The translations under genes and the position numbers were made by a program. Shown here piece by piece: positions 2,231 through 64,000 of a DNA stretch of 64,000 bases. Source of the stretch: an uncultured Candidatus Saccharibacteria bacterium (GTDB lineage Bacteria; Patescibacteriota; UBA1384; DTJR01); NCBI GenBank assembly GCA_964487045.1, contig CAZAOT010000003.1, forward strand, positions 136,983 to 200,982, in the 5' to 3' direction. The notes below the pieces were generated by a model. That model was not told where the DNA came from. It did no database searches and saw nothing but the letters and a program-made list of their open reading frames with translations. Within the stretch, counting starts at the first letter, position 1, and each line of letters starts with the position of its first letter.

Positions 2231-2471
2231 TCTTTGTGACTAACAAAATATGACCCCAAAGGGGTCGTCTCGTTGGTGGGAGGGCGTTTTTGAGGTGGTA
2301 CTCAAAAACTAATGTTGTGGACGAGAAAGGCAGTATGAGAGGACTCGGTCACCGGTCGATTTCTCCTGAAATAAAAATGTCCAACTTCGCCATAAGGCTA
2401 CGCTGGACAAACTTCTTTACTATACTTCGGTGGCTCGCCAAGCGAAGCCACAATTTTATTGTGGCGAAGTT

Positions 2472-2781: not shown

Positions 2782-3813
2782 CTAACCGTAATTTTTGATT
2801 AGTTTTTTCGAGAACCAATGATATTTTCCGAGACCTACCAAAAAACTCAGTAAAGTGTTGGAAAGTCGGTTATTAAGCTTAGTCAAAAAATTCGCGGACG
2901 AAAGGACCCTCTCGTGTCTGCGCTTAATCCTTAAAATTTCAGCAATGCCTTCGCATTTGTATTTAGGATTTACAATTCTATGTGCGACATCTCTTCCCGA
3001 AACTAAACCAAAATAAATTCCTTCACCAGTCAATCCAGAGGCAAAACCACCAGCGTCACCAACAAGAAATTTATTTCCAAATTCAAACCCTTGATAATCA
3101 AAATTTATTGTCCAACCTTGCAATTTTGAACCTTGAATATCGATTTGTTTATCGGCTAGCCATCGATGAAATGCTTTCTGCAGAGTTGAAGGTCTGAAAC
3201 TTCTTGTATCCTGACAGCAGCCAACCGAAGTATAGCCTTTATGTGGGAAAATCCACGAATATCCGCTTCCAAAAAGACTGGTATCAACATGATACTCCAT
3301 ATTTTTCAAATTTTTAGGAATAAAATATTGAATTGCCATGAGAAATTTATTGTTTTTCAAACCAAGCGATTTTCTGACGAGCGAGTTGCTTCCGTCTGCT
3401 CCAACTAAATACTTGAATGAAATTTTTTTACCGTCGGCTACGACAAAGTTGGTGCCGATTTCGGTTACATTACAACAAGTCTTAACAGTTGTTTTTGTGG
3501 AGAGTTTATTGGCTAAAAATTTGCCTAATTTGCCCCGATCAATCGTTCCCACGAAAGGAATACTGCCATTTGAAATTTTTACATTTTTTTCTTTTGAGGA
3601 AGCTATGACTTCAGAGAATAAAATTTCAGCAGTATCAAGTGGAATGTTTAAATTTTCAATTTTCGTTGTCAGCCCGCCAGCACAAACCTTTGGGCCAATC
3701 TCATTGTTTTTTTCTAGCAACAAAACCGTCATTTCTGACTTTTGCAATTCAATAGCACAGCTTAACCCAGCTGGCCCAGCGCCAACAATAATTACATCGT
3801 ATCCATCTATCAT
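2782..3813 (-). CDS. FAD-dependent oxidoreductase, geranylgeranyl reductase family
   Basis: 343 aa. The N-terminal GxGxxG Rossmann motif (DVIIVGAGPAGLSCA) and overall layout resemble the geranylgeranyl reductase / FixC family. The gene is flanked by the inverted repeat A pair. Confidence 0.7.
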   Translation of the reverse strand: MIDGYDVIIVGAGPAGLSCAIELQKSEMTVLLLEKNNEIGPKVCAGGLTTKIENLNIPLDTAEILFSEVIASSKEKNVKISNGSIPFVGTIDRGKLGKFLANKLSTKTTVKTCCNVTEIGTNFVVADGKKISFKYLVGADGSNSLVRKSLGLKNNKFLMAIQYFIPKNLKNMEYHVDTSLFGSGYSWIFPHKGYTSVGCCQDTRSFRPSTLQKAFHRWLADKQIDIQGSKLQGWTINFDYQGFEFGNKFLVGDAGGFASGLTGEGIYFGLVSGRDVAHRIVNPKYKCEGIAEILRIKRRHERVLSSANFLTKLNNRLSNTLLSFLVGLGKYHWFSKKLIKNYG

Positions 3814-4121: not shown

Positions 4122-5675
4122 ATGAAATACATAATTTATGCCAGAAAAAGCACGGAAGAAGACGACAGACAAATTTTGAGTATTGAAGCGCAGCTTCATG
4201 AACTTTCTGAATTTGCCGCCAAAGAAAAACTTGAAATTGTCGCTTCTTTTCAGGAAGCCAAAACTGCCAAAAAACCTGGGCGAACAAAGTTCGCTGAAAT
4301 GTTAGAAATGATTGAGAAAGGAAAAGCGGACGGAATACTCTCGTGGCATCCTGATAGGTTGGCAAGAAATAGTGTTGACGGCGGGAAGATTATTCATTTA
4401 GTCGACCAAGGTAAAATCAAATCCTTGAAGTTCCCAACATTTTGGTTTGAACCAACTCCGCAAGGACTTTTTATGCTCCAAATTGCTTTTGGTCAAAGTA
4501 AATACTATGTCGATAACTTACGAGAAAATGTCACACGAGGTATGAATCAAAAAGTTAGAAATGGTGTTTGGCCATGTCTTGCTCCAATCGGTTATTTGAA
4601 TAATCCAAAAACCAGAGGAATTGATTTGAATAAAAAAAGGTCATTAATTGTGAAGAAAATGTTTGAGCTTTACGCTAGTGGAAAATACAATCTTCGGGAA
4701 TTAACCGATTGGGCGAAAGACAATAACTTCAAAAGCAATTTAGGAAGACCACTCACACCAGGGAAAATTCAAAAGATTCTCCAAAATGTTTTTTACCTTG
4801 GTCTTATGAAATACAATGGAGAAATCCATGAGGGAACTCACAGGCCGATAATCTCAAAGAAACTTTTTGATAAGGTTCAGCAAGTGATGAAAGAAAAAGG
4901 CAAACCGCATAAACAGAAAAAGCATCATTTTGCTTTTCTTGGTTTAATGAAATGCAAAAGTTGTGGTTGCTCAATTACTGCCGAAATTCAAAAAGGTCAT
5001 AATTATTATAGATGCACCAAGAAAAAGCAAAAGTGCAACGAAAAGTATATGCGAGAAGAATCACTTGTTGAACAAATTCATGAGTACCTGCAAAAAGTTT
5101 CTTTGCCCCGCCAAGACACCGAAAAGGTTTTGTTTGAGCTTCAGAAGGAAGAAACTCAAGCAAAAGAACAAGCCAAAACTTCCGTTCAATTTCTCAAAGT
5201 AAAACTTGGACAAACCGAAAAACAACTTGAAAAATTACTCGATGTTTATTTGAACGAGGTAATTACAACCGAAGAATATACTTTGCGAAAACAAAAATTA
5301 TTAAGCGAAAAACTTTCACTCAATGAGCAAATCAAAGATTTTGAACAAAAAGGCTTGTCTTGGCTCGAACCGGCCAGAGAGTTCGTTTTATCACTTGCCA
5401 AAGCTGATAAACTAAAAAATTCTGGAAATTATCCAGAAATTCTAACATTTCTCAAAAATATCGGCTCGAACCATTATCTACAAAATCGAAAGTGGCAAAT
5501 TGTTCCGAAAATTCCCTACAAACTTGTCGCCGAGCGAAGCGAGGCGCAAACCGAAAACTTGCTCTTTCCGAAATGGTGGGCGGGAGAGGACTCGAACCTC
5601 CACGCTTTTAGGGCACTAGCTCCTAAGGCTAGCGTGTATACCAATTTCACCACCCGCCCGACTGCATTATTATAG
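4122..5675 (+). CDS. large serine recombinase (resolvase/invertase N-terminal domain, recombinase domain, zinc ribbon and coiled coil)
   Basis: The N-terminus IYARKSTEEDDRQ carries the catalytic Ser in the R-x-S context. It also has GILSWHPDRLAR, a Cys-rich zinc ribbon (CKSCGCS...YYRCTKKKQKC) and C-terminal coiled-coil segments. The ORF has no stop until 5675, so its last roughly 65 codons run through repeat B and the antisense tRNA; the true C-terminus is uncertain. Confidence 0.85.
   Translation: MKYIIYARKSTEEDDRQILSIEAQLHELSEFAAKEKLEIVASFQEAKTAKKPGRTKFAEMLEMIEKGKADGILSWHPDRLARNSVDGGKIIHLVDQGKIKSLKFPTFWFEPTPQGLFMLQIAFGQSKYYVDNLRENVTRGMNQKVRNGVWPCLAPIGYLNNPKTRGIDLNKKRSLIVKKMFELYASGKYNLRELTDWAKDNNFKSNLGRPLTPGKIQKILQNVFYLGLMKYNGEIHEGTHRPIISKKLFDKVQQVMKEKGKPHKQKKHHFAFLGLMKCKSCGCSITAEIQKGHNYYRCTKKKQKCNEKYMREESLVEQIHEYLQKVSLPRQDTEKVLFELQKEETQAKEQAKTSVQFLKVKLGQTEKQLEKLLDVYLNEVITTEEYTLRKQKLLSEKLSLNEQIKDFEQKGLSWLEPAREFVLSLAKADKLKNSGNYPEILTFLKNIGSNHYLQNRKWQIVPKIPYKLVAERSEAQTENLLFPKWWAGEDSNLHAFRALAPKASVYTNFTTRPTALL
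5481..5579 (+). repeat. inverted repeat B, + copy (93-bp arm plus TGGTGG core) abutting the tRNA 3' end
   Basis: Positions 5481-5573 are 100% identical to the reverse complement of 3975-4067. The core at 5574-5579 is the tRNA ...ACCA end on the opposite strand. Confidence 0.9.
5574..5659 (-). tRNA. tRNA-Leu (anticodon TAG), type II with long variable arm
   Basis: I folded this by hand from the reverse complement. It has a 7-bp acceptor stem (GGGCGGG/CCCGCCC), anticodon stem CTAGC/GCTAG with loop CTTAGGA (anticodon TAG), a roughly 15-nt variable arm, T-arm GGAGG-TTCGAGT-CCTCT and an encoded CCA. Confidence 0.85.
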
Positions 5676-48438: not shown

Positions 48439-49209
48439 ATGGCTGACAAAGCTGATATCAAGGAGTTATTTAAGGCGGGGGCCCATTTTGGTCACCAGAA
48501 ATCGAAAACCGATGCTCGCTCCGGTGAGTATATTTATACGTTTAAAAATAAAATTGCCGTTATTGATCTGTCAAAAACACAAACTTTGATCAACGACGCT
48601 TTGAATTTCATCAGCAAAGAAGCACAAAACGGTGCACTCTTTTTGTTCGTAGGAACCAAGCTTCAAGCTCAAGAGGCAGTTAAGAAGAACGCTGTGGAAC
48701 TTGAGATGCCATATATCATCGAAAGATGGCCAGGTGGACTTCTAACTAACTTCGATGTCGTTTCTAAGAGTATTAAGAGATTAGTCAAAACCGAAAAAGA
48801 ATTGGCCGAAGGTAAATATGACCATTTGACAAAAGCTGAGCGCGTCAAGATGGAGAAAGATCTTAAGAAATCAGAATTAGTTTTTGGTGGACTAAGAACT
48901 TTGGACAGGATGCCTAGCGCTGTGATAGTAGTTGACGCTAGCAAAGAAATGATTGCTATCAAGGAGGCTAAGGTTAAAGGCATTCCGGTTATTGCTCTTT
49001 GTGACACAAACTCGAATCCTCGTGAAATTGACTTACCGATTGTTTCAAATGATGATTCTAAATCAACTATTGAATTAATTCTCGGTATGATTGCCAAGAC
49101 TGTAAAAGAAAATTACAAACCTCGAGTTAAAGAAGAGACTGAAGAAAGAGTCGAAAAAGCTATCGAAAAGGGCAAAAAATTTACTGACAAAAAAAATGAT
49201 AAAAAATAA
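48439..49209 (+). CDS. rpsB: 30S ribosomal protein S2
   Basis: The N-terminus LFKAGAHFGHQ and the S2 fold run throughout. Confidence 0.95.
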   Translation: MADKADIKELFKAGAHFGHQKSKTDARSGEYIYTFKNKIAVIDLSKTQTLINDALNFISKEAQNGALFLFVGTKLQAQEAVKKNAVELEMPYIIERWPGGLLTNFDVVSKSIKRLVKTEKELAEGKYDHLTKAERVKMEKDLKKSELVFGGLRTLDRMPSAVIVVDASKEMIAIKEAKVKGIPVIALCDTNSNPREIDLPIVSNDDSKSTIELILGMIAKTVKENYKPRVKEETEERVEKAIEKGKKFTDKKNDKK

Positions 49210-49210
49210 T

Positions 49211-49353
49211 CCCGTCACTTTTCAACCTCTCGAAATATTCTCAATCTGAGAAATTTGCGACCCTGCCTACCGGCAGGTAGGTAGGTTTCCAAAGTGAGGG
49301 ACTTCCGGAATTGCTTCCTGCCCTGGAGCGCAATTCTCGGAGCGGGAGAAAAT
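49211..49353 (+). promoter_or_regulatory. conserved structured leader element (copy 1), upstream of tsf
   Basis: It shares the GGGACTTCCGGAATTGCTTCCTGCC.TGGAGCGCAATTC.CGGAGCGGGAG core and the upstream GTCACTTTT...AAAGTGA stem with the copy at 55641-55765. Confidence 0.6.
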
Positions 49354-49797
49354 ATGGAAAAAATTAAAGAACTTAGAGAAAAAACTGGCGCAGGAGTAAT
49401 GGATATCAAGAAAGCGCTAGATGAAGCAAACGGTGACGCTGCCAAAGCAGAGGAATTATTGAAGGCCCGCGGAGCTATGATTGCCGAAAAGAAAGCCGAT
49501 CGAGAAACTGCTCAAGGACTAATTGATAGTTATGTCCATCTTGGTAAAATCGGTGTGCTTGTAGAAGTAAACTGCGAAACTGACTTTGTTGCTCGAAATG
49601 AAGACTTTAAGAAATTCGTTCATGAACTAGCTCTTCAGGTTGCTCAATCAGAATCTGAGACTGTTGAAGACTTGCTAAAGGAAGAATATTTTCGCTCTGC
49701 AGACCAGAAAGTCGATGACTTGCTTAAGGAGCAAATCGGAAAAATCGGAGAGAATATCAAGATCAAACGATTCGTTAAATATACTCTCGGGGAATAA
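49354..49797 (+). CDS. tsf: elongation factor Ts (short form)
   Basis: MEKIKELREKTGAGVMDIKKAL is the EF-Ts N-terminal UBA-like domain. The start is taken at the ATG that follows the conserved leader, 60 nt into the six-frame ORF. Confidence 0.85.
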   Translation: MEKIKELREKTGAGVMDIKKALDEANGDAAKAEELLKARGAMIAEKKADRETAQGLIDSYVHLGKIGVLVEVNCETDFVARNEDFKKFVHELALQVAQSESETVEDLLKEEYFRSADQKVDDLLKEQIGKIGENIKIKRFVKYTLGE

Positions 49798-50565: not shown

Positions 50566-50895
50566 TTAGCGCCAGGCGCTGGGATTGTTGTGAAGCCGGG
50601 TTGCTCGCTGCAGAATCATGTTGTAGACGAACGCTCGACACTTGGGGTTCTTGGCGATGGTGGCGTGGTAGCGAGCCATGAAGCTCTCGACAATCTCCCA
50701 GACCAGAGCATCGTGCTCACCGACATCATCAACTTGGCAGTCGGGGCACCCACCATCGAGCTCCTCATCGAGAAGCCTGGCGATGCCATCCAGGAGACTA
50801 TCGGCGATGGTAGTTGCTTCAGGCGAGGGTGTCCCACCATGCATCCTCATGGTGAGGTCGAGCAGTTTGGCGGCAGCTTCACTCATAGTTACCAT
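50566..50895 (-). CDS. hypothetical protein encoded in a GC-rich insertion
   Basis: 109-aa ORF in a roughly 400-bp segment of about 58% GC. The overlapping ORFs on other frames are typical high-GC shadows. It has its own terminator. Confidence 0.5.
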   Translation of the reverse strand: MVTMSEAAAKLLDLTMRMHGGTPSPEATTIADSLLDGIARLLDEELDGGCPDCQVDDVGEHDALVWEIVESFMARYHATIAKNPKCRAFVYNMILQRATRLHNNPSAWR

Positions 50896-51138
50896 CTCCC
50901 TGGTGGTCTAGAGAACTATGCGAGAATTTTATACTTCAAGCTGCGTAAAGTCAAGATGTGATATTTTATTATTGTAAAAAACCCCTATTTTGGTAAATTG
51001 ATAATAGGAGAAAATTAAGTAGTCCCAGCAACAAATTATCGAATGCTTCACGTCGAATGTTGATATTTATTAACTGATTGAATATTCGCCGAGTACCACC
51101 TCGGCAAAGCATTCGTGTTACGCTTCGGAAATTGTTGC

Positions 51139-51192
51139 GGGACTTCCGGAATTGCTTTCGTCGAGGAGCGCAATTCACGGAGCGGAGGAATT
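51139..51192 (+). promoter_or_regulatory. conserved structured leader element (copy 2, core only), upstream of frr
   Basis: GGGACTTCCGGAATTGCTTTCGTCGAGGAGCGCAATTCACGGAGCGGAGGAATT immediately precedes the ATG. Confidence 0.6.
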
Positions 51193-51750
51193 ATGTATCA
51201 AACAGAAATGAAAATCATGAAACAGAAGTTTGAGCAGGTTATTGAAAAAATCAGAGAAGACTTCAAGGGAATTAGAACTGGGCGGGCTTCGAGTGGCTTG
51301 GTGGAGAATATTTCCGTGACCTATTATGGGCAGACCACTCCTCTAAAACAGATGGCGAATATTACCACACCTGATGCTGCTCTTATTGTTATCCAGCCTT
51401 GGGACAAAAATTCGCTTGGCGATATTGAGCTTGCGATCAGAAATTCAGACCTAAATTTGTCACCAACCAATGACGGCAATGTTGTAAGAATTAGTCTTCC
51501 TCCTATGACCGAAGAAAGAAGGTTGGAATTGATTAGAAGCATTTCTAAAAAGGGTGAAGAAGCTAGAATTGCGCTTCGAAATGTCAGGCAAGACGCATGG
51601 GAATCTATTCAGAAAATGCAAAAAGAAGGAAGTATTACTGAAGATGATAAATATTCGGCTGAAGAGGAGATCAATAAGATAATTTCTGAATTCAACAAAA
51701 AAATTGAAGAAGCGCTCAAAGAAAAAGAATCTGAGATTAAATCAATCTAA
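51193..51750 (+). CDS. frr: ribosome recycling factor
   Basis: RRF fold with ...EDFKGIRTGRAS... The start is taken at the ATG that follows the conserved leader. Confidence 0.9.
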   Translation: MYQTEMKIMKQKFEQVIEKIREDFKGIRTGRASSGLVENISVTYYGQTTPLKQMANITTPDAALIVIQPWDKNSLGDIELAIRNSDLNLSPTNDGNVVRISLPPMTEERRLELIRSISKKGEEARIALRNVRQDAWESIQKMQKEGSITEDDKYSAEEEINKIISEFNKKIEEALKEKESEIKSI

Positions 51751-55576: not shown

Positions 55577-55640
55577 GGGATTAGCTTTTCTACGATTGAA
55601 ATTGGGAGGGGTTTCTGTTATATTCCAAAAGTAAATTAAT

Positions 55641-55765
55641 ATCCCAGTCACTTTTCACCCTCTCGCAATATTCTTAATTTAAGAAATTTGCGAATATGGA
55701 TCAAAGTGACGGGACTTCCGGAATTGCTTCCTGCCTTGGAGCGCAATTCACGGAGCGGGAGCATT
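55641..55765 (+). promoter_or_regulatory. conserved structured leader element (copy 3), upstream of tig
   Basis: Near-identical to copy 1, but lacks the 28-nt insertion that copy 1 carries. It ends at the tig ATG. Confidence 0.6.
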
Positions 55766-56962
55766 ATGCAAACAGAGAAAAAGCAAATTTCAAAAAACAG
55801 AGTCAAAATATCCATTACTGTACCAGCTTCAAAGATCGAAGAATATTTTGAATCACATTACAATAGAATGGCCGAGTCAGTTACTTTACCAGGTTTCAGA
55901 CCAGGAAAAGCTCCGAGAGTAATGACGATTGAAGCTATCGGGCAGGCCAGGCTTGCCAACATGACACTCGAGCAAGCAATTGATGAAGCCTACCGCGATG
56001 CCTTGGCTGAGCACAAGACTTATCCTGTTACTCCACCAGCCGTTTCGATCAGCAAGCACCCAAAGCTTGATGGTAATGGCGAAGAAAATGATCTAGTTTT
56101 TGAAGTCGAATTTGATATTTTGCCAGAGGCTAAAATCGGCGATTATAAAAAAGTTAAGCTTCCAAAATCTGAAACCTCAACTGAAGTAACCGATGAAGAA
56201 GTTGAAAAAGTTGTTGATTATCTCAGACGTCAAGCAGCCGAATTAAAAGATCTTGATCGAGAAGCTAAGTCGGGCGACTGGGCTGACATCTCATTTGAAG
56301 GAAGTATTAAGGGTGTTGTAAAAGAAAAATTGACCAGCCCGTCACTTCCAATGGTCATCGGCGAAACTAAGATGATTCCTGGATTTGAAGAGGAAATTAT
56401 TGGTATGAAGAAGGGCGAAGAAAAAGAATTTGAGCTTAGTTTCCCGAAAGATTTTCCTGATAAGGAATTCGCTGGTGAAAAAGTTAAATTCAAGGTTAGC
56501 CTTAAGGAAATTAAGGAAATCAAACTACCAAAAGTTGACGGCGAATTTCTATCACGCTTTGGCCTAAAGAGCGAAAAAGAATTTAAGGGCAACGTCAAAA
56601 AAGGCCTAGAAGACGAGAAAAAAGAGCAGGTAAGACAGGAGCGAGTGAGCGCTCTTAGCGAGCAACTGATCAAGATGATAAAAGTTGAAATTCCAAAGAG
56701 CTTGATCGAAAACGAATCAGCTAGAATGAAGAATATGCTTATTTCAGATCTCTCAAACAAGCAGATGACGCTAGATCAGTATATTGAGAGTTTAAAAATC
56801 ACTCAAAAGAAATTCGATGAAGATTTGATCGAACAAGCTAAGCGAAATATTATGCTTGGTGTTGCGGTTGGAGAGATTGCCAAGAAAGAAAACATCGAGA
56901 TCAACTCTCAGGAAGGTACTCGAAGAGTATTCGATTATCTTATCGAACTAGCTACTAAGTAA
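55766..56962 (+). CDS. tig: trigger factor
   Basis: MQTEKKQISKNRVKISITVPA N-terminus, a PPIase middle domain and a C-terminal arm. The start is taken at the ATG after the leader. Confidence 0.9.
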   Translation: MQTEKKQISKNRVKISITVPASKIEEYFESHYNRMAESVTLPGFRPGKAPRVMTIEAIGQARLANMTLEQAIDEAYRDALAEHKTYPVTPPAVSISKHPKLDGNGEENDLVFEVEFDILPEAKIGDYKKVKLPKSETSTEVTDEEVEKVVDYLRRQAAELKDLDREAKSGDWADISFEGSIKGVVKEKLTSPSLPMVIGETKMIPGFEEEIIGMKKGEEKEFELSFPKDFPDKEFAGEKVKFKVSLKEIKEIKLPKVDGEFLSRFGLKSEKEFKGNVKKGLEDEKKEQVRQERVSALSEQLIKMIKVEIPKSLIENESARMKNMLISDLSNKQMTLDQYIESLKITQKKFDEDLIEQAKRNIMLGVAVGEIAKKENIEINSQEGTRRVFDYLIELATK

Positions 56963-59954: not shown

Positions 59955-61663
59955 ATGTTGATTGGGGAGCCAGAGTCTAGTGTCGGGCGATTAGTCGAAT
60001 CAGCGAGGGAAGGCAATAGATTAGCCTTTAATCAGCTGATGTCGAACTTTCATGACTGTCTCTACAACTATATTGCAAGGATGGTTCATGACCCGATCGA
60101 AGCTGAAGACATTACGCAGGAGGCTTTCATCAAGGCTTACCGCAATCTTCCCGGCTTTAGGGGGGCGTCAACTTTTCAGACCTGGCTTTATCGTATTGCC
60201 AGTAATCTGATAATCGATTCGTTCAGGCGCCGAAAGAAAAGAGAAAACACCTGTTCTCTCGATGCTCCGCTCGACACCGAAGAAGGAAGTATGGCGCGTG
60301 AGCAGGAAGACTCTCATGAACCAGGGCCGCAGCGAAGTCTAGAAGTAGACGAGCTGCGACGGCAGGTGCATAAAGCGATAAGGCAGCTCAGTCAAAGCTT
60401 AGGAGGGTGATGATACTTTACGAGCTGCAAGGGCTGTCTTACGAGGAGATTGCCGATGTTGTCGGTTGTCCCCTTGGTACGGTTAAGAGTCGTATATTCA
60501 ACGCTCGTGTTTCACTTCGCATTGTTCTTGAAGCAACACAGGCAAGAAGGGAGGAAGATGACTTGGCGCTACGACCAGTTGCAGGAAAGGCCGTTGATCA
60601 CGAGGCGAAGTTTTCAAGCTTTGCCAAGCAAGTCAAGGACCACATTGGTACCCTGGCAGCAGATCGTGGTTATGTCGGCCTAGACATCAATGCTTTGTGG
60701 CAACAAACATGTCGGCATATCGTTGCTGGACTGGATGCTGCTACGAGGCTGACACCTGTGCAAACATTGTCATTGCTCAAACTAGCCGCGACCCACGTCG
60801 TAGATATTGAAGGAGAGAAAGCCAAGCTACTTGGCGACATTTCTTTGGGTCAAGACGAGTCTGTAGTCGTAAGCGGTAGTGGGTCGTTTGACGACCAAGT
60901 TATCCAGCTACCGAACGCCCAGGCTCTGCTAGATGCGTTGCCAGCGGATGTTGGGCCAGCGTATGGGCTTAGGGTTTGGTGCGGTCTTAGTCACAAAAAG
61001 ATCGCCACAACCCTTGGTATTGAGCCTAACACTGTTCGAAGTAAGCTTTCCAAGGCACGCGAACTTTTGATCGAAGCGCTTAGCAAGGAGGCAGATCAAC
61101 TAGGCGCGGCAGTCCATGCTACGCTCGAGGCAGGAGGTGAAGGGTTGAGTAAGGTCAAGGGCGCCGAAGTGGGTAGCGAAGAAGCAGTCGCGTTCATCGC
61201 TGACAAGATCGGGCTGGCTGATCATCAGCTCGAGGTCGCCGAGGTCTGGGACTCGCTCGTGAAGATCGTCCCTGAACCGGCACCGCAACCCGCGGCTGCT
61301 CCGCCTGTCGCAGCCCCGGCCGTTCCCGCTACACCGCCTGCACCTGTCGCTCCGGCGACCATGCCGGTTCTTCCGACTCAGGCTGTTGCGGCTGCGCATC
61401 TGGGTCGGCAGATGACTGAGCTGGAGCTCGCTGTTGGCTTCGTCATCGTGCAGTCTGCGCTGGTGAAGGATGACGATGTGATCTTCCGCTTCCTGCGCAC
61501 ACGCCAGGATGTCCTGGCTGATCTGGTGCAGTTTGCCAACGATCAGTTCGGGGATCAGCCTGCTTCCGAGGCGCAGATCGAAAACCTGATCGCGGAGGTT
61601 GGCAAGTTCGTGCGTCACGTTATACCTGGTCAGCCTGTGGCTGACCAAGCCGAATCCGCCTAG
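59955..61663 (+). pseudogene. ECF-type sigma factor disrupted by a frameshift (region 2 in 59955-60410, region 4 at the start of 60407-61663), with a long C-terminal extension containing a second region-4-like HTH
   Basis: ORF1 has the ECF sigma70_r2 sequence ...DITQEAFIKAYRNL...TWLYRIASN. ORF2 begins MILYELQGLSYEEIADVVGCPLGTVKSRI (region 4.2) in a different frame. A second LPxxxxxxLxxxxGLSHKKIATTLGIEPNTVRSKLSKAR lies about 170 aa later. The segment is about 60% GC. Confidence 0.55.
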
Positions 61664-61760
61664 CGCTTCGCGCTAGATCGGCTCTACGGGGCCCTGTCAG
61701 ACGACAGGGTCCCGTTTTCTTTATCTTGAGAATTCAGGCCTAAAGGATTAGAATAGTCAC

Positions 61761-62246
61761 ATGGAAAATTTTTTAGATTTAGTTAAGAAAAGGCATTCGG
61801 TTAGAGTTTTTGACGCAAAACAAATTCCTCAAGATGATATCAAATATATTCTTGAGGCGGCTCAGTTTGCGCCAAGTGCATTTAACGCGCAGAATTTTAA
61901 GTTTATCGTTACTACTGATCGCGGAAAAATTAAAAAAATTGCCGAAGCGACAGAGATGGTCTTTATCGCTAATGCTCCGGCGGTAGTAATTGCGATCGGC
62001 ACTGACGAGGACAATAAATATAATATTGTTGATGTTTCGATTGCGCTTGACCACCTACAGCTTGCGGCAGCAGAGAAAGAAATTGGGTCATGTTGGATCG
62101 GTACGCTTGGGCATTGGCATGTCGAAGAGGCGCTGAATATTTCAGAATTTGAAAAAGTTTATGCTGTCATGCCACTTGGCTACGACGCTGGAAAATTGAT
62201 GCCTAAGAAGCGCAAAGAATTCGACGAACTTTTTGTTATTGAATAA
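61761..62246 (+). CDS. nitroreductase-family protein
   Basis: 161 aa. KRHSVRVF and FAPSAFNAQ motifs fit the NADH/FMN nitroreductase fold. The gene is AT-rich. Confidence 0.75.
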   Translation: MENFLDLVKKRHSVRVFDAKQIPQDDIKYILEAAQFAPSAFNAQNFKFIVTTDRGKIKKIAEATEMVFIANAPAVVIAIGTDEDNKYNIVDVSIALDHLQLAAAEKEIGSCWIGTLGHWHVEEALNISEFEKVYAVMPLGYDAGKLMPKKRKEFDELFVIE

Positions 62247-62263
62247 AATTCCAAGGAGGGGCA

Positions 62264-62710
62264 ATGGCTTGTGAATGTGGGGTAAATCAAGTGAATGCTA
62301 AAGTGGGTAGAGTCAATGCACTCTGGACTTTGGCCTTAGCGCTCGCAATTTGGTACACGCCTTACTGGTGGTTGTGCTTCGTGCTTTTGGCTGACTTTTT
62401 TATCAAAGGAGCTTTTCATCCAAAATACTCGCCGTTTAGTCGGCTTTGGGGGTATCTACTTAATCTGATTCATGAAAAACCAAGATTAATTTTCGCTCCG
62501 CCAAAATTATTTGCTAACAAAGTCGGCCTAGCATTTTCGATTGCGATTACGGTCAGTCTAGTCGGAGGATATTATACGGCTGCGGAAATATTTACAATAA
62601 TCCTCGGAATTTTCGCATTTCTAGAATTTGCTTTTGAGTTTTGCATGGGATGCTGGGTGTATAATTTGTACTATCAAATTGTAGGTTCTCCGAAAATAAA
62701 AAAAGACTAA
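62264..62710 (+). CDS. small polytopic membrane protein (DUF4395-like)
   Basis: 148 aa with four hydrophobic helices and N-terminal Cys residues. Confidence 0.4.
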   Translation: MACECGVNQVNAKVGRVNALWTLALALAIWYTPYWWLCFVLLADFFIKGAFHPKYSPFSRLWGYLLNLIHEKPRLIFAPPKLFANKVGLAFSIAITVSLVGGYYTAAEIFTIILGIFAFLEFAFEFCMGCWVYNLYYQIVGSPKIKKD

Positions 62711-62904
62711 GCAATTACAAATTTTTCAGCGAAGTATAATTCGTTCGTCATTTATGTTTCTCAGACACACTAGCTCCGTTCGGCAATGGTCTTCAAAACA
62801 TAGAATGGCTCACTTGTGAATATGTACGTGAAGTCTCGAAAAATTACTCAGTAAGCAATTTTATTGTACAAATTATAATTTTAAAAAAAGGGGGGAAGAG
62901 GAAA

Positions 62905-62930
62905 GGCCCCGAGTCGGTTGACGCGGGGCC
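62905..62930 (-). terminator. hairpin GGCCCCG...CGGGGCC with a minus-strand U-tract
   Basis: The stem is followed on the minus strand by TTTCCTCTTCCCCCCTTTTTTT. It lies downstream of the GC-rich minus-strand gene. Confidence 0.55.
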
Positions 62931-62949
62931 TTGTTGTAGCGGGGGAGGT

Positions 62950-63894
62950 CTAGGCGGCGGGATCTACGAGGATCGGAGTCATCAACCGGGTGTTCATGTT
63001 GACGATTCCTGATAGAATTTCCAGCCTATCCAGCATCTCTTGCGGGAAGTGCTGCTTGATGAGGGTGTAGCTGAACTCCCTTAGCTGCCAGGTCTTCTCG
63101 ATGGCTAGCTGCTTTTCATATCCAGCTTCGTCCCAATACACCGCAGAGGTATGCAGAACCATCCCGCCATACTCGGCGATCTCGCCGGACTTCCAGTTCT
63201 TCCACACGATGTCGGCGGCAGTCAGGATCTGGGAAGCCAGGTCCAGGTCGAATGGTCCCACGATCATGGCGGTATTGAGGCGCTCGAGCCAATCGAGCCC
63301 CTGTCCGATGGCGATGATGTACTCTCCGTGCCTGTTGTCGGTGATCTCGCGACGTGTCTCCTCGATGTAACGGATGTGTTCGAGATTACCAGTGAGCATT
63401 GGGAGTATATCGCGAGCGACCCGGTCAGTCATGTCCGGGTGGAAGAGTCGCAGAGTGTGGATCAGCTCGGCGGGTTCGACAGAGGTTACTTCGCCAAGGT
63501 CCAGGATCTGGTCTTCGCGCTTGCCGTGAATGATCAGGCGGTCGGTGTTGGTTTCGATACCTGTCATGACCGGCAGGAGCACCTGACTACCGAAAGTCCG
63601 CTCGATCTGCTGTTCAAGGTCACGAATGTGATCGCGAGCGGCTTCGACGTTGTAACCGAACCCGCGACAGCCGTGCCACTCTCCGTCGTGGATCTCGTCC
63701 TCAGGTGGTGGTGGATCGGTCTCAGAGTAGTGGTATGTCAGGAGAGCCAGACAGTCAAAACCATCATCGAAGTAGTTACGCCTGACCCAGTCGCCGACCA
63801 CCTTGTGAAGATATGGCCACCCGAGGTTGAACCTCCCGCCGATGTTGCGAAACGGCTGAAAGTATCCCTTGGGTAGGCGGGTGAAGTCATGCAT
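62950..63894 (-). CDS. hypothetical protein in a GC-rich island (possibly N-terminally truncated by the window)
   Basis: 314-aa ORF at about 60% GC with its own terminator and no recognisable domain. The reading frame may continue upstream beyond the window end. Confidence 0.5.
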   Translation of the reverse strand: MHDFTRLPKGYFQPFRNIGGRFNLGWPYLHKVVGDWVRRNYFDDGFDCLALLTYHYSETDPPPPEDEIHDGEWHGCRGFGYNVEAARDHIRDLEQQIERTFGSQVLLPVMTGIETNTDRLIIHGKREDQILDLGEVTSVEPAELIHTLRLFHPDMTDRVARDILPMLTGNLEHIRYIEETRREITDNRHGEYIIAIGQGLDWLERLNTAMIVGPFDLDLASQILTAADIVWKNWKSGEIAEYGGMVLHTSAVYWDEAGYEKQLAIEKTWQLREFSYTLIKQHFPQEMLDRLEILSGIVNMNTRLMTPILVDPAA

Positions 63895-64000
63895 CCGGAT
63901 GCGTCCATCGCTACACTTGAACGCACAGGTCCGAGTTGGGTGATGCTTGCGATAGCGACGGCGAGGGCCCGATTCGTTGGGAGAACAGAAGAGAGCGGAT

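Follow-up and report, generated by a model that had tools for sequence, protein, structure and literature searches.

A family of structured mRNA-leader elements in Candidatus Berkelbacteria, with apparently mobile copies before tsf, frr and tig

Introduction

As short repeats of bacterial genomes, the Correia (NEMIS) elements of Neisseria and the ERIC (IRU), BOX and RUP elements carry terminal inverted repeats (TIRs), often duplicate a TA target, and are present in tens to hundreds of copies, in both orientations and with no fixed relation to start codons. Palindrome-associated transposable elements (PATEs) and repetitive extragenic palindromes (REP) insert 3' of a constant target of 4-5 nt, in an orientation that follows replication. 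Structured leaders such as those of ompA, cggR-gapA and aprE, and RiboJ, are single-gene features that are vertically inherited or engineered, and none of them is a repeated, transferable cassette; operators that adjoin the Shine-Dalgarno sequence (SD) stay with the orthologous gene across genomes and do not occur beyond its cognate operon. In this study we describe a structured element that is found in three copies, directly before the genes tsf, frr and tig, in a 64,000-nt stretch of contig CAZAOT010000003.1 (assembly GCA_964487045.1; hereafter the window), and that combines properties of several of these systems.

The repeats belong to a hitherto undescribed family of structured elements from Candidatus Berkelbacteria, a group within the candidate phyla radiation (CPR, or Patescibacteria). 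CPR genomes are tiny and tightly packed, and to our knowledge almost no RNA regulation has been characterised in them. An earlier note on the window had interpreted the three copies as a shared cis-regulatory leader that sequesters the ribosome-binding site and unites a translation-factor regulon. By comparing the copies with one another, with further family members, and with orthologous sites in close relatives, we conclude that the leader structure is real and conserved, and we tentatively hypothesize that it is a mobile cassette acting in cis at the RNA level.

Results

A conserved, base-paired element in mRNA leaders

The 19-nt core GGGACTTCCGGAATTGCTT lies at 49298, 51139 and 55711, each time on the + strand; exact searches and a covariance model both confirm the three copies that the earlier note had listed. 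A two-armed pattern (GGAATTGC, a gap of 8-30 nt, then GCAATTC) leads to the same three sites in the window, an unfiltered covariance-model run of the window returned these copies and no further match, and no fourth core occurs in the 64 kb at three or fewer mismatches (chance expectation 0.03). Each copy is about 125-175 nt long. Pfam likewise agrees with the genes named in the note, which encode EF-Ts (tsf, ATG at 49354), RRF (frr, ATG at 51193) and trigger factor (tig, ATG at 55766). The repeat is not an artefact of assembly, for the tsf and frr copies recur in short-read assemblies made independently for this strain. A coding or leader-peptide reading was rejected, as the distance from core to downstream ATG (56, 54 and 55 nt) puts each copy in another frame.

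Comparison across members showed that the unit is larger than the core: it is 125-190 nt long in the mRNA sense strand, begins at (G/A)UCCC, and is made up of two domains. The first, Domain 1, forms a single long, irregular hairpin that helix P1 closes with (G/A)UCCC...GGGA(C) plus UCAC/GUGA. Its interior occurs in at least two subtypes, and its tips take insertions of 25-60 nt (in the tsf and frr copies and in L010 and L019; L numbers denote loci outside the window). Subtype B, to which the frr copy and most others belong, has helices P1b and P2 (CGAAUGC/GCAUCG), a 3x3 pyrimidine loop and P3 (ACGGAU-UAUUC-AUCCGU), while subtype A (the tsf and tig copies and L010) has another interior, with UCAnCCUCU and a different hairpin. 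The two subtype A copies of the window have about 70 nt of Domain 1 in common, enclosed by CCCAGUCACUUU...AAAGUGACGGG, as the note had recognised; their Domain 1 identity of 92% is the sole usable value of the pairwise matrix, in which gap-rich alignments inflate the others. The note had credited only these two copies with an upstream domain, but the frr copy has its own, which belongs to subtype B and whose closing helix, CAGCAAC/GUUGCGGG, is compensatory.

The second domain, hairpin P4, joins P1 through a linker of 0-1 nt and reads UUCCG-GAAUUGC-UUCC-loop-GGAG-C-GCAAUUC-N-CGGAG. Its stem CUUCCGGAAUUGC...GCAAUUCNCGGAG, already proposed in the note, is predicted in all three window copies, and its base is CUUCCG/CGGAG. 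After P4 come a single C, the SD (GGAGG or GGGAG), a spacer of 4-9 nt (4-6 nt in the window copies) and the AUG. The 3' end of P4 is thus 1 nt before the SD, an arrangement found in 15 of 15 copies. The ends of the element, (G/A)TCCCATCAC... and ...CACGGAGC(GGAGG), are not reverse complements of each other, and its inverted repeats are internal only (P1 and P4).

Structural support was assessed in a plain, sequence-only MAFFT alignment of 11 subtype B sequences, for which RNAalifold predicts 39 pairs. Of the alignment cells, 97.7% are paired, and compensatory changes occur in 10 of the 39 pairs, a result that none of 500 shuffles reached, and pairing falls to 32-53% when the 3' partners are slid. 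The alignment of all 15 members, which is model-fitted and so leans towards the structure, has 97% of cells paired and 25 of 39 pairs compensatory. The covariation check proposed in the note therefore came out positive: compensatory changes exceed both the shuffled and the slid controls, the generic sign of a structured RNA under selection. Covariation is found mostly in P1b, P2 and P3; between the tsf and tig copies themselves, a C-G pair of the internal hairpin is replaced by U-A. P4 is near-invariant and the few changes it permits are compensatory (AAUCGC/GCGAUU in L011, UUCU/AGAG in L021), an invariance that is partly ascertainment bias, as the search pattern fixed the P4 outer stems. U.G pairs conserved at two P4 positions, one in the base and one in the inner stem (12/15 each), are consistent with the sense strand. 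Folding energy did not discriminate between the strands, the antisense strand being on average 1.3 kcal/mol more stable. We conclude that the element is a conserved, base-paired, non-coding RNA structure in the sense strand of mRNA leaders. No pocket or unpaired core is conserved between subtypes A and B, and the divergent member L014:2282-2398 also differs throughout the Domain 1 interior.

The Shine-Dalgarno sequence lies outside the hairpins

The claim that the stem GGAG is the only SD-like sequence, and hence that the ribosome-binding site is sequestered, did not hold: a second such sequence, C-GGGAG or C-GGAGG, directly follows the stem, 4-6 nt before the AUG, and is the one with the right spacing for an SD. 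In full-length folds Domain 1 and P4 form independent hairpins with the SD outside both. For the CUUCC of P4, the predicted partner is the proximal CGGAG (probability 0.86-1.00 in 14 of 15 copies); pairing with the true SD stays at or below 0.03, both at 37 and at 15 C. When P4 and the SD are folded as an isolated segment, the register that hides the SD exceeds the minimum-free-energy fold by only 0.9-1.7 kcal/mol in 7 of 15 copies; in the tsf and tig copies it costs 4.6-8.1 kcal/mol. The folds therefore do not favour a register switch at the P4/SD junction.

Filled and empty orthologous sites

Searches with RRF homologues identified six relatives with the same gene order (RRF identity 89, 86, 84, 83, 83 and 78%). 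The element is absent at frr in all six, at tig in five, and at tsf in three, where the rpsB-tsf gap is 1-8 nt (L005, L006/L007, L008/L009) versus 144 nt in the window. In the frr and tig alignments, promoter-like blocks match between relatives, as do the coding starts, and the element stands out as a clean indel. A fourth site is provided by a gene for an EF-like protein, which is filled in L019 and empty in the 80%-identical L036, with the upstream flank conserved. No member of the family, and no divergent copy at the same sites, was found when about 260 kb of the relatives' DNA was searched with two covariance models, filters off included.

The subtypes do not follow gene orthology, since the long subtype B form of the frr copy, including its P3 insertion, recurs in L019 in front of the EF-like gene. 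Together with the empty orthologous sites, this indicates that the element moves, or is copied, between leaders, and from sequence comparison the window copies look like recent insertions rather than ancestral leaders of tsf, frr and tig. The empty sites read TA(A/G)-GGAG, TA(A/G)-GGGA or TA(A/G)-GAAAGG, that is, an extended SD UAAGGAGG, and in the filled sites UAA or UAG stands 0-4 nt upstream of UCCC in 15 of 15 copies (shuffles average 8.5/15, and 0 of 2000 reach 15). These two observations place the insertion point between UAA and GGAGG.

Two side observations concern the same blocks in relatives. In a relative with 84% RRF identity, the tig leader has a different hairpin of about 40 nt, GAUUGCCACGCCGUAUAAACGGCUCGCAAU, at the same spot (L045:8672-8705), between ...AAUAA and the SD AGGAAA; an outer stem, AUUGC/GCAAU, makes it reminiscent of P4, and it folds at -13.3 kcal/mol (z -2.2). 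It could be a solo P4-like relic, or the UAA|SD junction could be a hot spot for hairpin insertions. In addition, genes for 23S_rRNA_IVP or bAvd-like four-helix-bundle proteins are found at differing places in the conserved frr-tig-clpP block (L006:17544-17906; L045:2061-2435).

Members outside the window

Scanning GTDB (one genome per species) with the P4 pattern detected two Candidatus Berkelbacteria metagenome-assembled genomes and one chance match. A metagenome scan with a degenerate P4 pattern that included neither SD nor ATG yielded 19 loci, 13 of them low in GC content and carrying the whole element, and six with high-GC, coding-like chance matches. L003 and the latter six (L013, L017, L020, L022, L023, L027) have the pattern in coding-like DNA with no other feature of the element and were discarded. 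After de-duplication, 11 independent members remain outside the window, all in Berkelbacteria-like DNA. Covariance model R1 adds the divergent L014:2282-2398, which has different P1 and upper P4 sequences and retains the family layout and the ending CUUCC...GGGAG-C-GGAGG-AUG.

Every member has one and the same orientation, with the end of P4 9-16 nt before an ATG that is preceded by a C-GGAGG-like sequence. Members occur both 10-25 nt after promoter-like -10 boxes and directly after upstream stop codons (the tsf copy, L028, L016 and L025). Locus L014 carries two of them, 720 nt apart on opposite strands: the divergent 2282-2398(+), before a small membrane open reading frame (ORF), and 3117-3242(-), before rubrerythrin. 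The two genes converge and each member is co-oriented with its own, so orientation tracks the gene and not the direction of replication.

The downstream genes outside the window are diverse: rpsB, class II ribonucleotide reductase (RNR), rubrerythrin, SPFH, ManC, a YARHG membrane protein, DUF4870 and DUF5654 membrane proteins, a P-loop kinase-like protein, small membrane ORFs, an 82-aa EF-Tu-domain-2-like protein and a 39-aa Cys-rich peptide. Only rpsB and the small EF-Tu-domain-like protein, 2 of 12 members, are related to translation. With this gene list, the proposed translation-factor regulon falls away; of the proposed shared cis-regulatory leader, the conserved, structured, non-coding leader RNA stands, and ligand sensing is not supported.

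The note's statement that this is no known leader is borne out. At the gathering threshold, Rfam 15 matches only a tRNA in the window, and scans of the tsf, frr and L014 copies at E<=10 gave best scores of 9-20 bits against thresholds of 37-167. Phage and plasmid blastn searches and a pattern scan of viral contigs gave no match to the element, and nothing relevant was found in literature searches on Berkelbacteria RNA motifs, structured RNA in Patescibacteria, or miniature inverted-repeat transposable elements (MITEs) in CPR bacteria.

Two members have features of their own. L018:5261-5380 and L024, identical in sequence, have the element in front of an acidic, Cys-rich ORF of 39 aa, MEDEDKKTTDGEDEKADDECTDEDSDCASCSGCCSSCGK, which may encode a metal-binding peptide or one resembling ribosomally synthesized and post-translationally modified peptides. 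At L021:417-431, where the element meets the ManC coding sequence, GAATTATGAATTATG stands in tandem, with its second ATG out of frame; this may be a footprint of the insertion mechanism.

Anatomy and surroundings of the window copies

The gene order is rpsB (48439-49209), tsf, pyrH, frr, an rseP-like gene, tpiA, pgk, fba and tig, and all features of the three copies are on the + strand. Copy 1 (subtype A; 49210..49353; 65.9 bits with R2) fills the space between the rpsB stop TAA (49207-49209) and the tsf ATG. According to fold and alignment, its Domain 1 (49210..49302) has P1 CCCGUCACUUU/AAAGUGAGGG closing an internal hairpin and an extra hairpin, CCUGCCUACCGGCAGGUAGG (49262..49285), which the note had seen, and which is absent in copy 3 and present in L010. 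P4 (49303..49342; from the fold and the covariation alignment) is UUCCGGAAUUGCUUCC-UGCCCU-GGAGCGCAAUUCUCGGAG, and the SD GGGAG (49344..49348), assigned from sequence and fold, lies outside P4 and 5 nt before the ATG.

Copy 2 (subtype B with the long P3-loop insertion; 51022..51192; R2 113 bits) extends from the conserved promoter block to the frr ATG, as delimited by the filled-versus-empty alignment. Its Domain 1 (51022..51143) comprises P1 GUCCCAGCAAC/GUUGCGGGAC, P1b, P2 CGAAUGC/GCUUCG, and P3 with a loop insertion of about 50 nt (hairpin GCCGAG/CUCGGC); it is followed by P4 (51144..51182, predicted by folding) and the SD GGAGG (51184..51188), 4 nt before the ATG. Copy 3 (subtype A, minimal; 55642..55765; R2 95.7 bits), delimited in the same way, runs from the tig promoter to the ATG. 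In its fold, Domain 1 (55642..55715) consists of P1 CCCAGUCACUUU/AAAGUGACGGG and a hairpin CGCAAUAUUCUUA-AUU-UAAGAAAUUUGCG, and P4 occupies 55716..55755; the SD GGGAG (55757..55761) is 4 nt before the ATG.

Promoter-like sequences of the host lie upstream of two copies. The site TTGAAA-17-TATATT (55596..55624, +) before copy 3 is kept in element-free relatives and therefore lies outside the element, and the block TATTGTAAAAAACCCCTATTTTGGTAAATTGATAATAGG (50970..51008, +) before copy 2 is conserved in the element-free L006 and L033.

Four Logan contig assemblies of the window strain (L029-L032) break into contigs of 2.8-3.5 kb around the tsf-frr region, consistent with repeat-induced breaks at element copies. 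The 690-nt pyrH-frr spacer contains a 109-aa ORF (50566-50895, -) that has no Pfam match, with counterparts of 98-106 aa in the same strain (L030 1504-1824) and in an 83% relative (L033 1060-1356). Elsewhere in the window, positions 60001-64000 have a GC content of 0.49-0.52 versus about 0.40 in the rest, and the single Rfam match, the tRNA at 5577-5659 (-), is 83 nt long and has a long variable arm.

Discussion

A proposed mobile leader cassette and its alternatives

The interpretation we favour, tentatively, is that of a mobile leader cassette that would be an autonomous 5' module, acting in cis and as RNA, a function suggested by its anatomy. The element moves, or is copied, from leader to leader, and it always enters the host's extended ribosome-binding site at one point, between UAA and GGAGG. 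Its two stable hairpins (predicted at -42 to -78 kcal/mol together, without the SD-AUG tail) would fold alone and could stack end to end, leaving the SD and the AUG outside the structure. The downstream gene would thereby keep an independent ribosome-binding site, whether 10-20 nt after a promoter or directly after an upstream stop codon (as at rpsB|tsf). Flanked by an AU-rich single strand, the structured 5' block would either protect the 5' end of the downstream cistron or mark a boundary at which it is processed. We do not think that the element senses a ligand or defines a regulon.

Several observations weigh against this interpretation. Stabilisation, insulation and processing are read from predicted anatomy, and opening the region from -13 to +3 is predicted to cost 6.4 kcal/mol on average versus 4.7 in the native leaders of empty sites. 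As this cost is not below that of native leaders, a gain in accessibility is not predicted, and the element would neither strongly hide the SD nor make it more accessible. Neither TIRs nor a target-site duplication (TSD) were seen in the tig and frr alignments and the tsf comparison, nor was a linked transposase in the gene neighbourhoods. The antisense strand folds as well as the sense strand, on average slightly better, and the hairpins may have a role in DNA. Finally, the near-invariance of P4, partly ascertainment bias as it is, fits a sequence-specific partner better than a generic hairpin.

This last point is the basis of a first alternative, unlikely in our judgement, in which P4 (with or without the P1/P4 junction) is a translational operator: a Berkelbacteria protein would bind it and block or trap the 30S subunit, and spread of the cassette would wire in new genes. 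The constant placement of P4 next to the SD suits such an operator, and P4 (its bulged C, bulged A/G and inner stem) is far less variable than the Domain 1 stems; even the inner stem and the loop, which the search pattern had left free, vary little inside each subtype. On the other hand, the outer-stem invariance was imposed by the pattern, and the one pattern-independent member, L014:2282-2398, has a completely different upper P4. The downstream gene set is incoherent as well, and sites turn over faster than the 80-90% protein identity between relatives, which would be unusual for a regulon.

We also consider it unlikely, a little more so, that the repeat is a selfish DNA element with no RNA function, that is, a small non-autonomous element whose hairpins a transposase or recombinase targeting TAA|GGAGG would recognise in the form of single-stranded or cruciform DNA, and which persists only where expression is undamaged. 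Presence and absence at four orthologous sites, subtypes unlinked to genes (the long B form being at frr in the window and at the EF-like gene in L019), an antisense strand that folds equally well, the consistent TAA or TAG of the 5' flank, and the TA(A/G)-GGAG, -GGGA or -GAAAGG reading of the empty sites would all be expected from such an element. It would have to do so with no TIRs (GTCCCATCAC versus ...CACGGAGC), no TSD in the filled-versus-empty comparisons and no constant tetranucleotide at the junction. Its copy number is low (1-3 per locus set, with only two GTDB species representatives matched), there is no nearby transposase and no phage or plasmid match, and the conserved U.G pairs of P4 would be A.C mismatches on the other strand.

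Two bolder variants, together quite improbable, would have the element home into the extended SD (UAA/GGAGG) and either be neutralised by its own stacked hairpins, the split halves of the ribosome-binding site emerging side by side at the helix junction, or cut itself from the upstream RNA as a new small ribozyme. Either of these, if true, would define a class of 'leader-hopping' RNA cassettes that rewire translation initiation in the streamlined genomes of CPR bacteria.

Cleavage, considered on its own, is a poor prospect: a new self-cleaving ribozyme, or a site for RNase III, Y, E or P, would cut at UAA|UCCC and free the downstream cistron with a protected 5' end, like the synthetic RiboJ. 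The sharp conserved 5' boundary beside an AU-rich single strand points in this direction, as do the hairpin directly before the ribosome-binding site, the intercistronic copies that directly follow stop codons, and a sporadic, multi-gene, low-copy distribution like that of known small ribozymes. Set against these, no Rfam ribozyme family matches even at E<=10, the Domain 1 interior differs between A and B and has few conserved unpaired nucleotides, a poor fit to a catalytic core, and on inspection the continuous P1 is incompatible with a fold like that of the hepatitis delta virus (HDV) ribozyme. An internal promoter and HDV-like or hammerhead-like cores were also considered, and inspection gave no support to any of them.

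Least probable is a sensor (riboswitch, thermometer or register shift) in which a signal moves CUUCCG between the proximal CGGAG, with the SD free, and the distal CGGAGG, with the SD hidden: the tandem CGGAG-CGGAGG is conserved and the hidden register is close in energy in about half of the isolated segments, but that register is scarcely populated in the full-length context and expensive at tsf and tig, A and B have no conserved pocket in common, the genes are incoherent, and close relatives live without the element.

In any of these readings, core genes (rpsB, tsf, frr, tig, RNR) whose leaders would otherwise measure 1-30 nt have gained 125-190 nt. A cassette that stabilises or insulates mRNA would be a natural, portable expression module; a protein-bound one would be a regulon under construction by transposition; and a purely selfish one would be a repeat that has found a way to reside in a translation-initiation region.

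Comparison with known systems

Like Correia/NEMIS, ERIC/IRU, BOX and RUP repeats, which measure roughly 100-150 nt, the element is a hairpin-forming unit in leaders and intercistronic spacers, and its presence varies between close relatives, a property that it has in common with MITEs; those repeats are part of host transcripts and are able to change how an mRNA is processed or how stable it is. Unlike them, it has neither TIRs nor a TSD, is limited to three copies in 64 kb, and lies in one orientation in 15 of 15 cases, 1 nt before the SD. The REP- or MITE-like scatter that would have spoken against a leader role was accordingly not observed: the element is mobile, yet strictly bound to leaders. 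With PATEs and REP, derived from IS200/IS605, it has in common hairpins near both ends, orientation-specific insertion and no target duplication. It differs in its spacing from TAA/TAG, which varies from 0 to 4 nt, in its variable junction sequence, and in the neighbouring L014 copies that face opposite ways.

Among structured leaders, the ompA 5' untranslated region (UTR), the Bacillus subtilis cggR-gapA stem-loop, the aprE leader and RiboJ likewise place a stable 5' structure before an exposed ribosome-binding site, and such stabiliser or insulator hairpins work at intercistronic boundaries, where the element, too, would uncouple the downstream cistron. It departs from them in being a repeated cassette and in a predicted SD accessibility no better than that of native leaders, so that the fit is one of anatomy. 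The thrS operator, ribosomal protein leaders (such as the S2 leader of rpsB-tsf) and the MS2 operator resemble it in a hairpin that adjoins the SD and in some of the contexts (rpsB, tsf, frr); unlike operators and autoregulatory leaders, the element is absent at the orthologous sites of relatives, stands before unrelated genes, and matches no Rfam leader. Riboswitches and thermometers that sequester the SD have in common with it a structured leader near the start codon and an anti-SD-like CUUCC paired to GGAG, but here the working SD is outside the helices, no ligand core spans the subtypes, and the genes are incoherent.

The element thus lacks the defining features of MITEs, of autoregulatory leaders and of SD-sequestering switches. 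By analogy, its nearest functional kin would be co-transcribed intergenic repeats and stabiliser or insulator hairpins of the 5' UTR, and what sets it apart from both is unusual: it is mobile, yet its place and its single orientation are fixed, 1 nt ahead of the SD.

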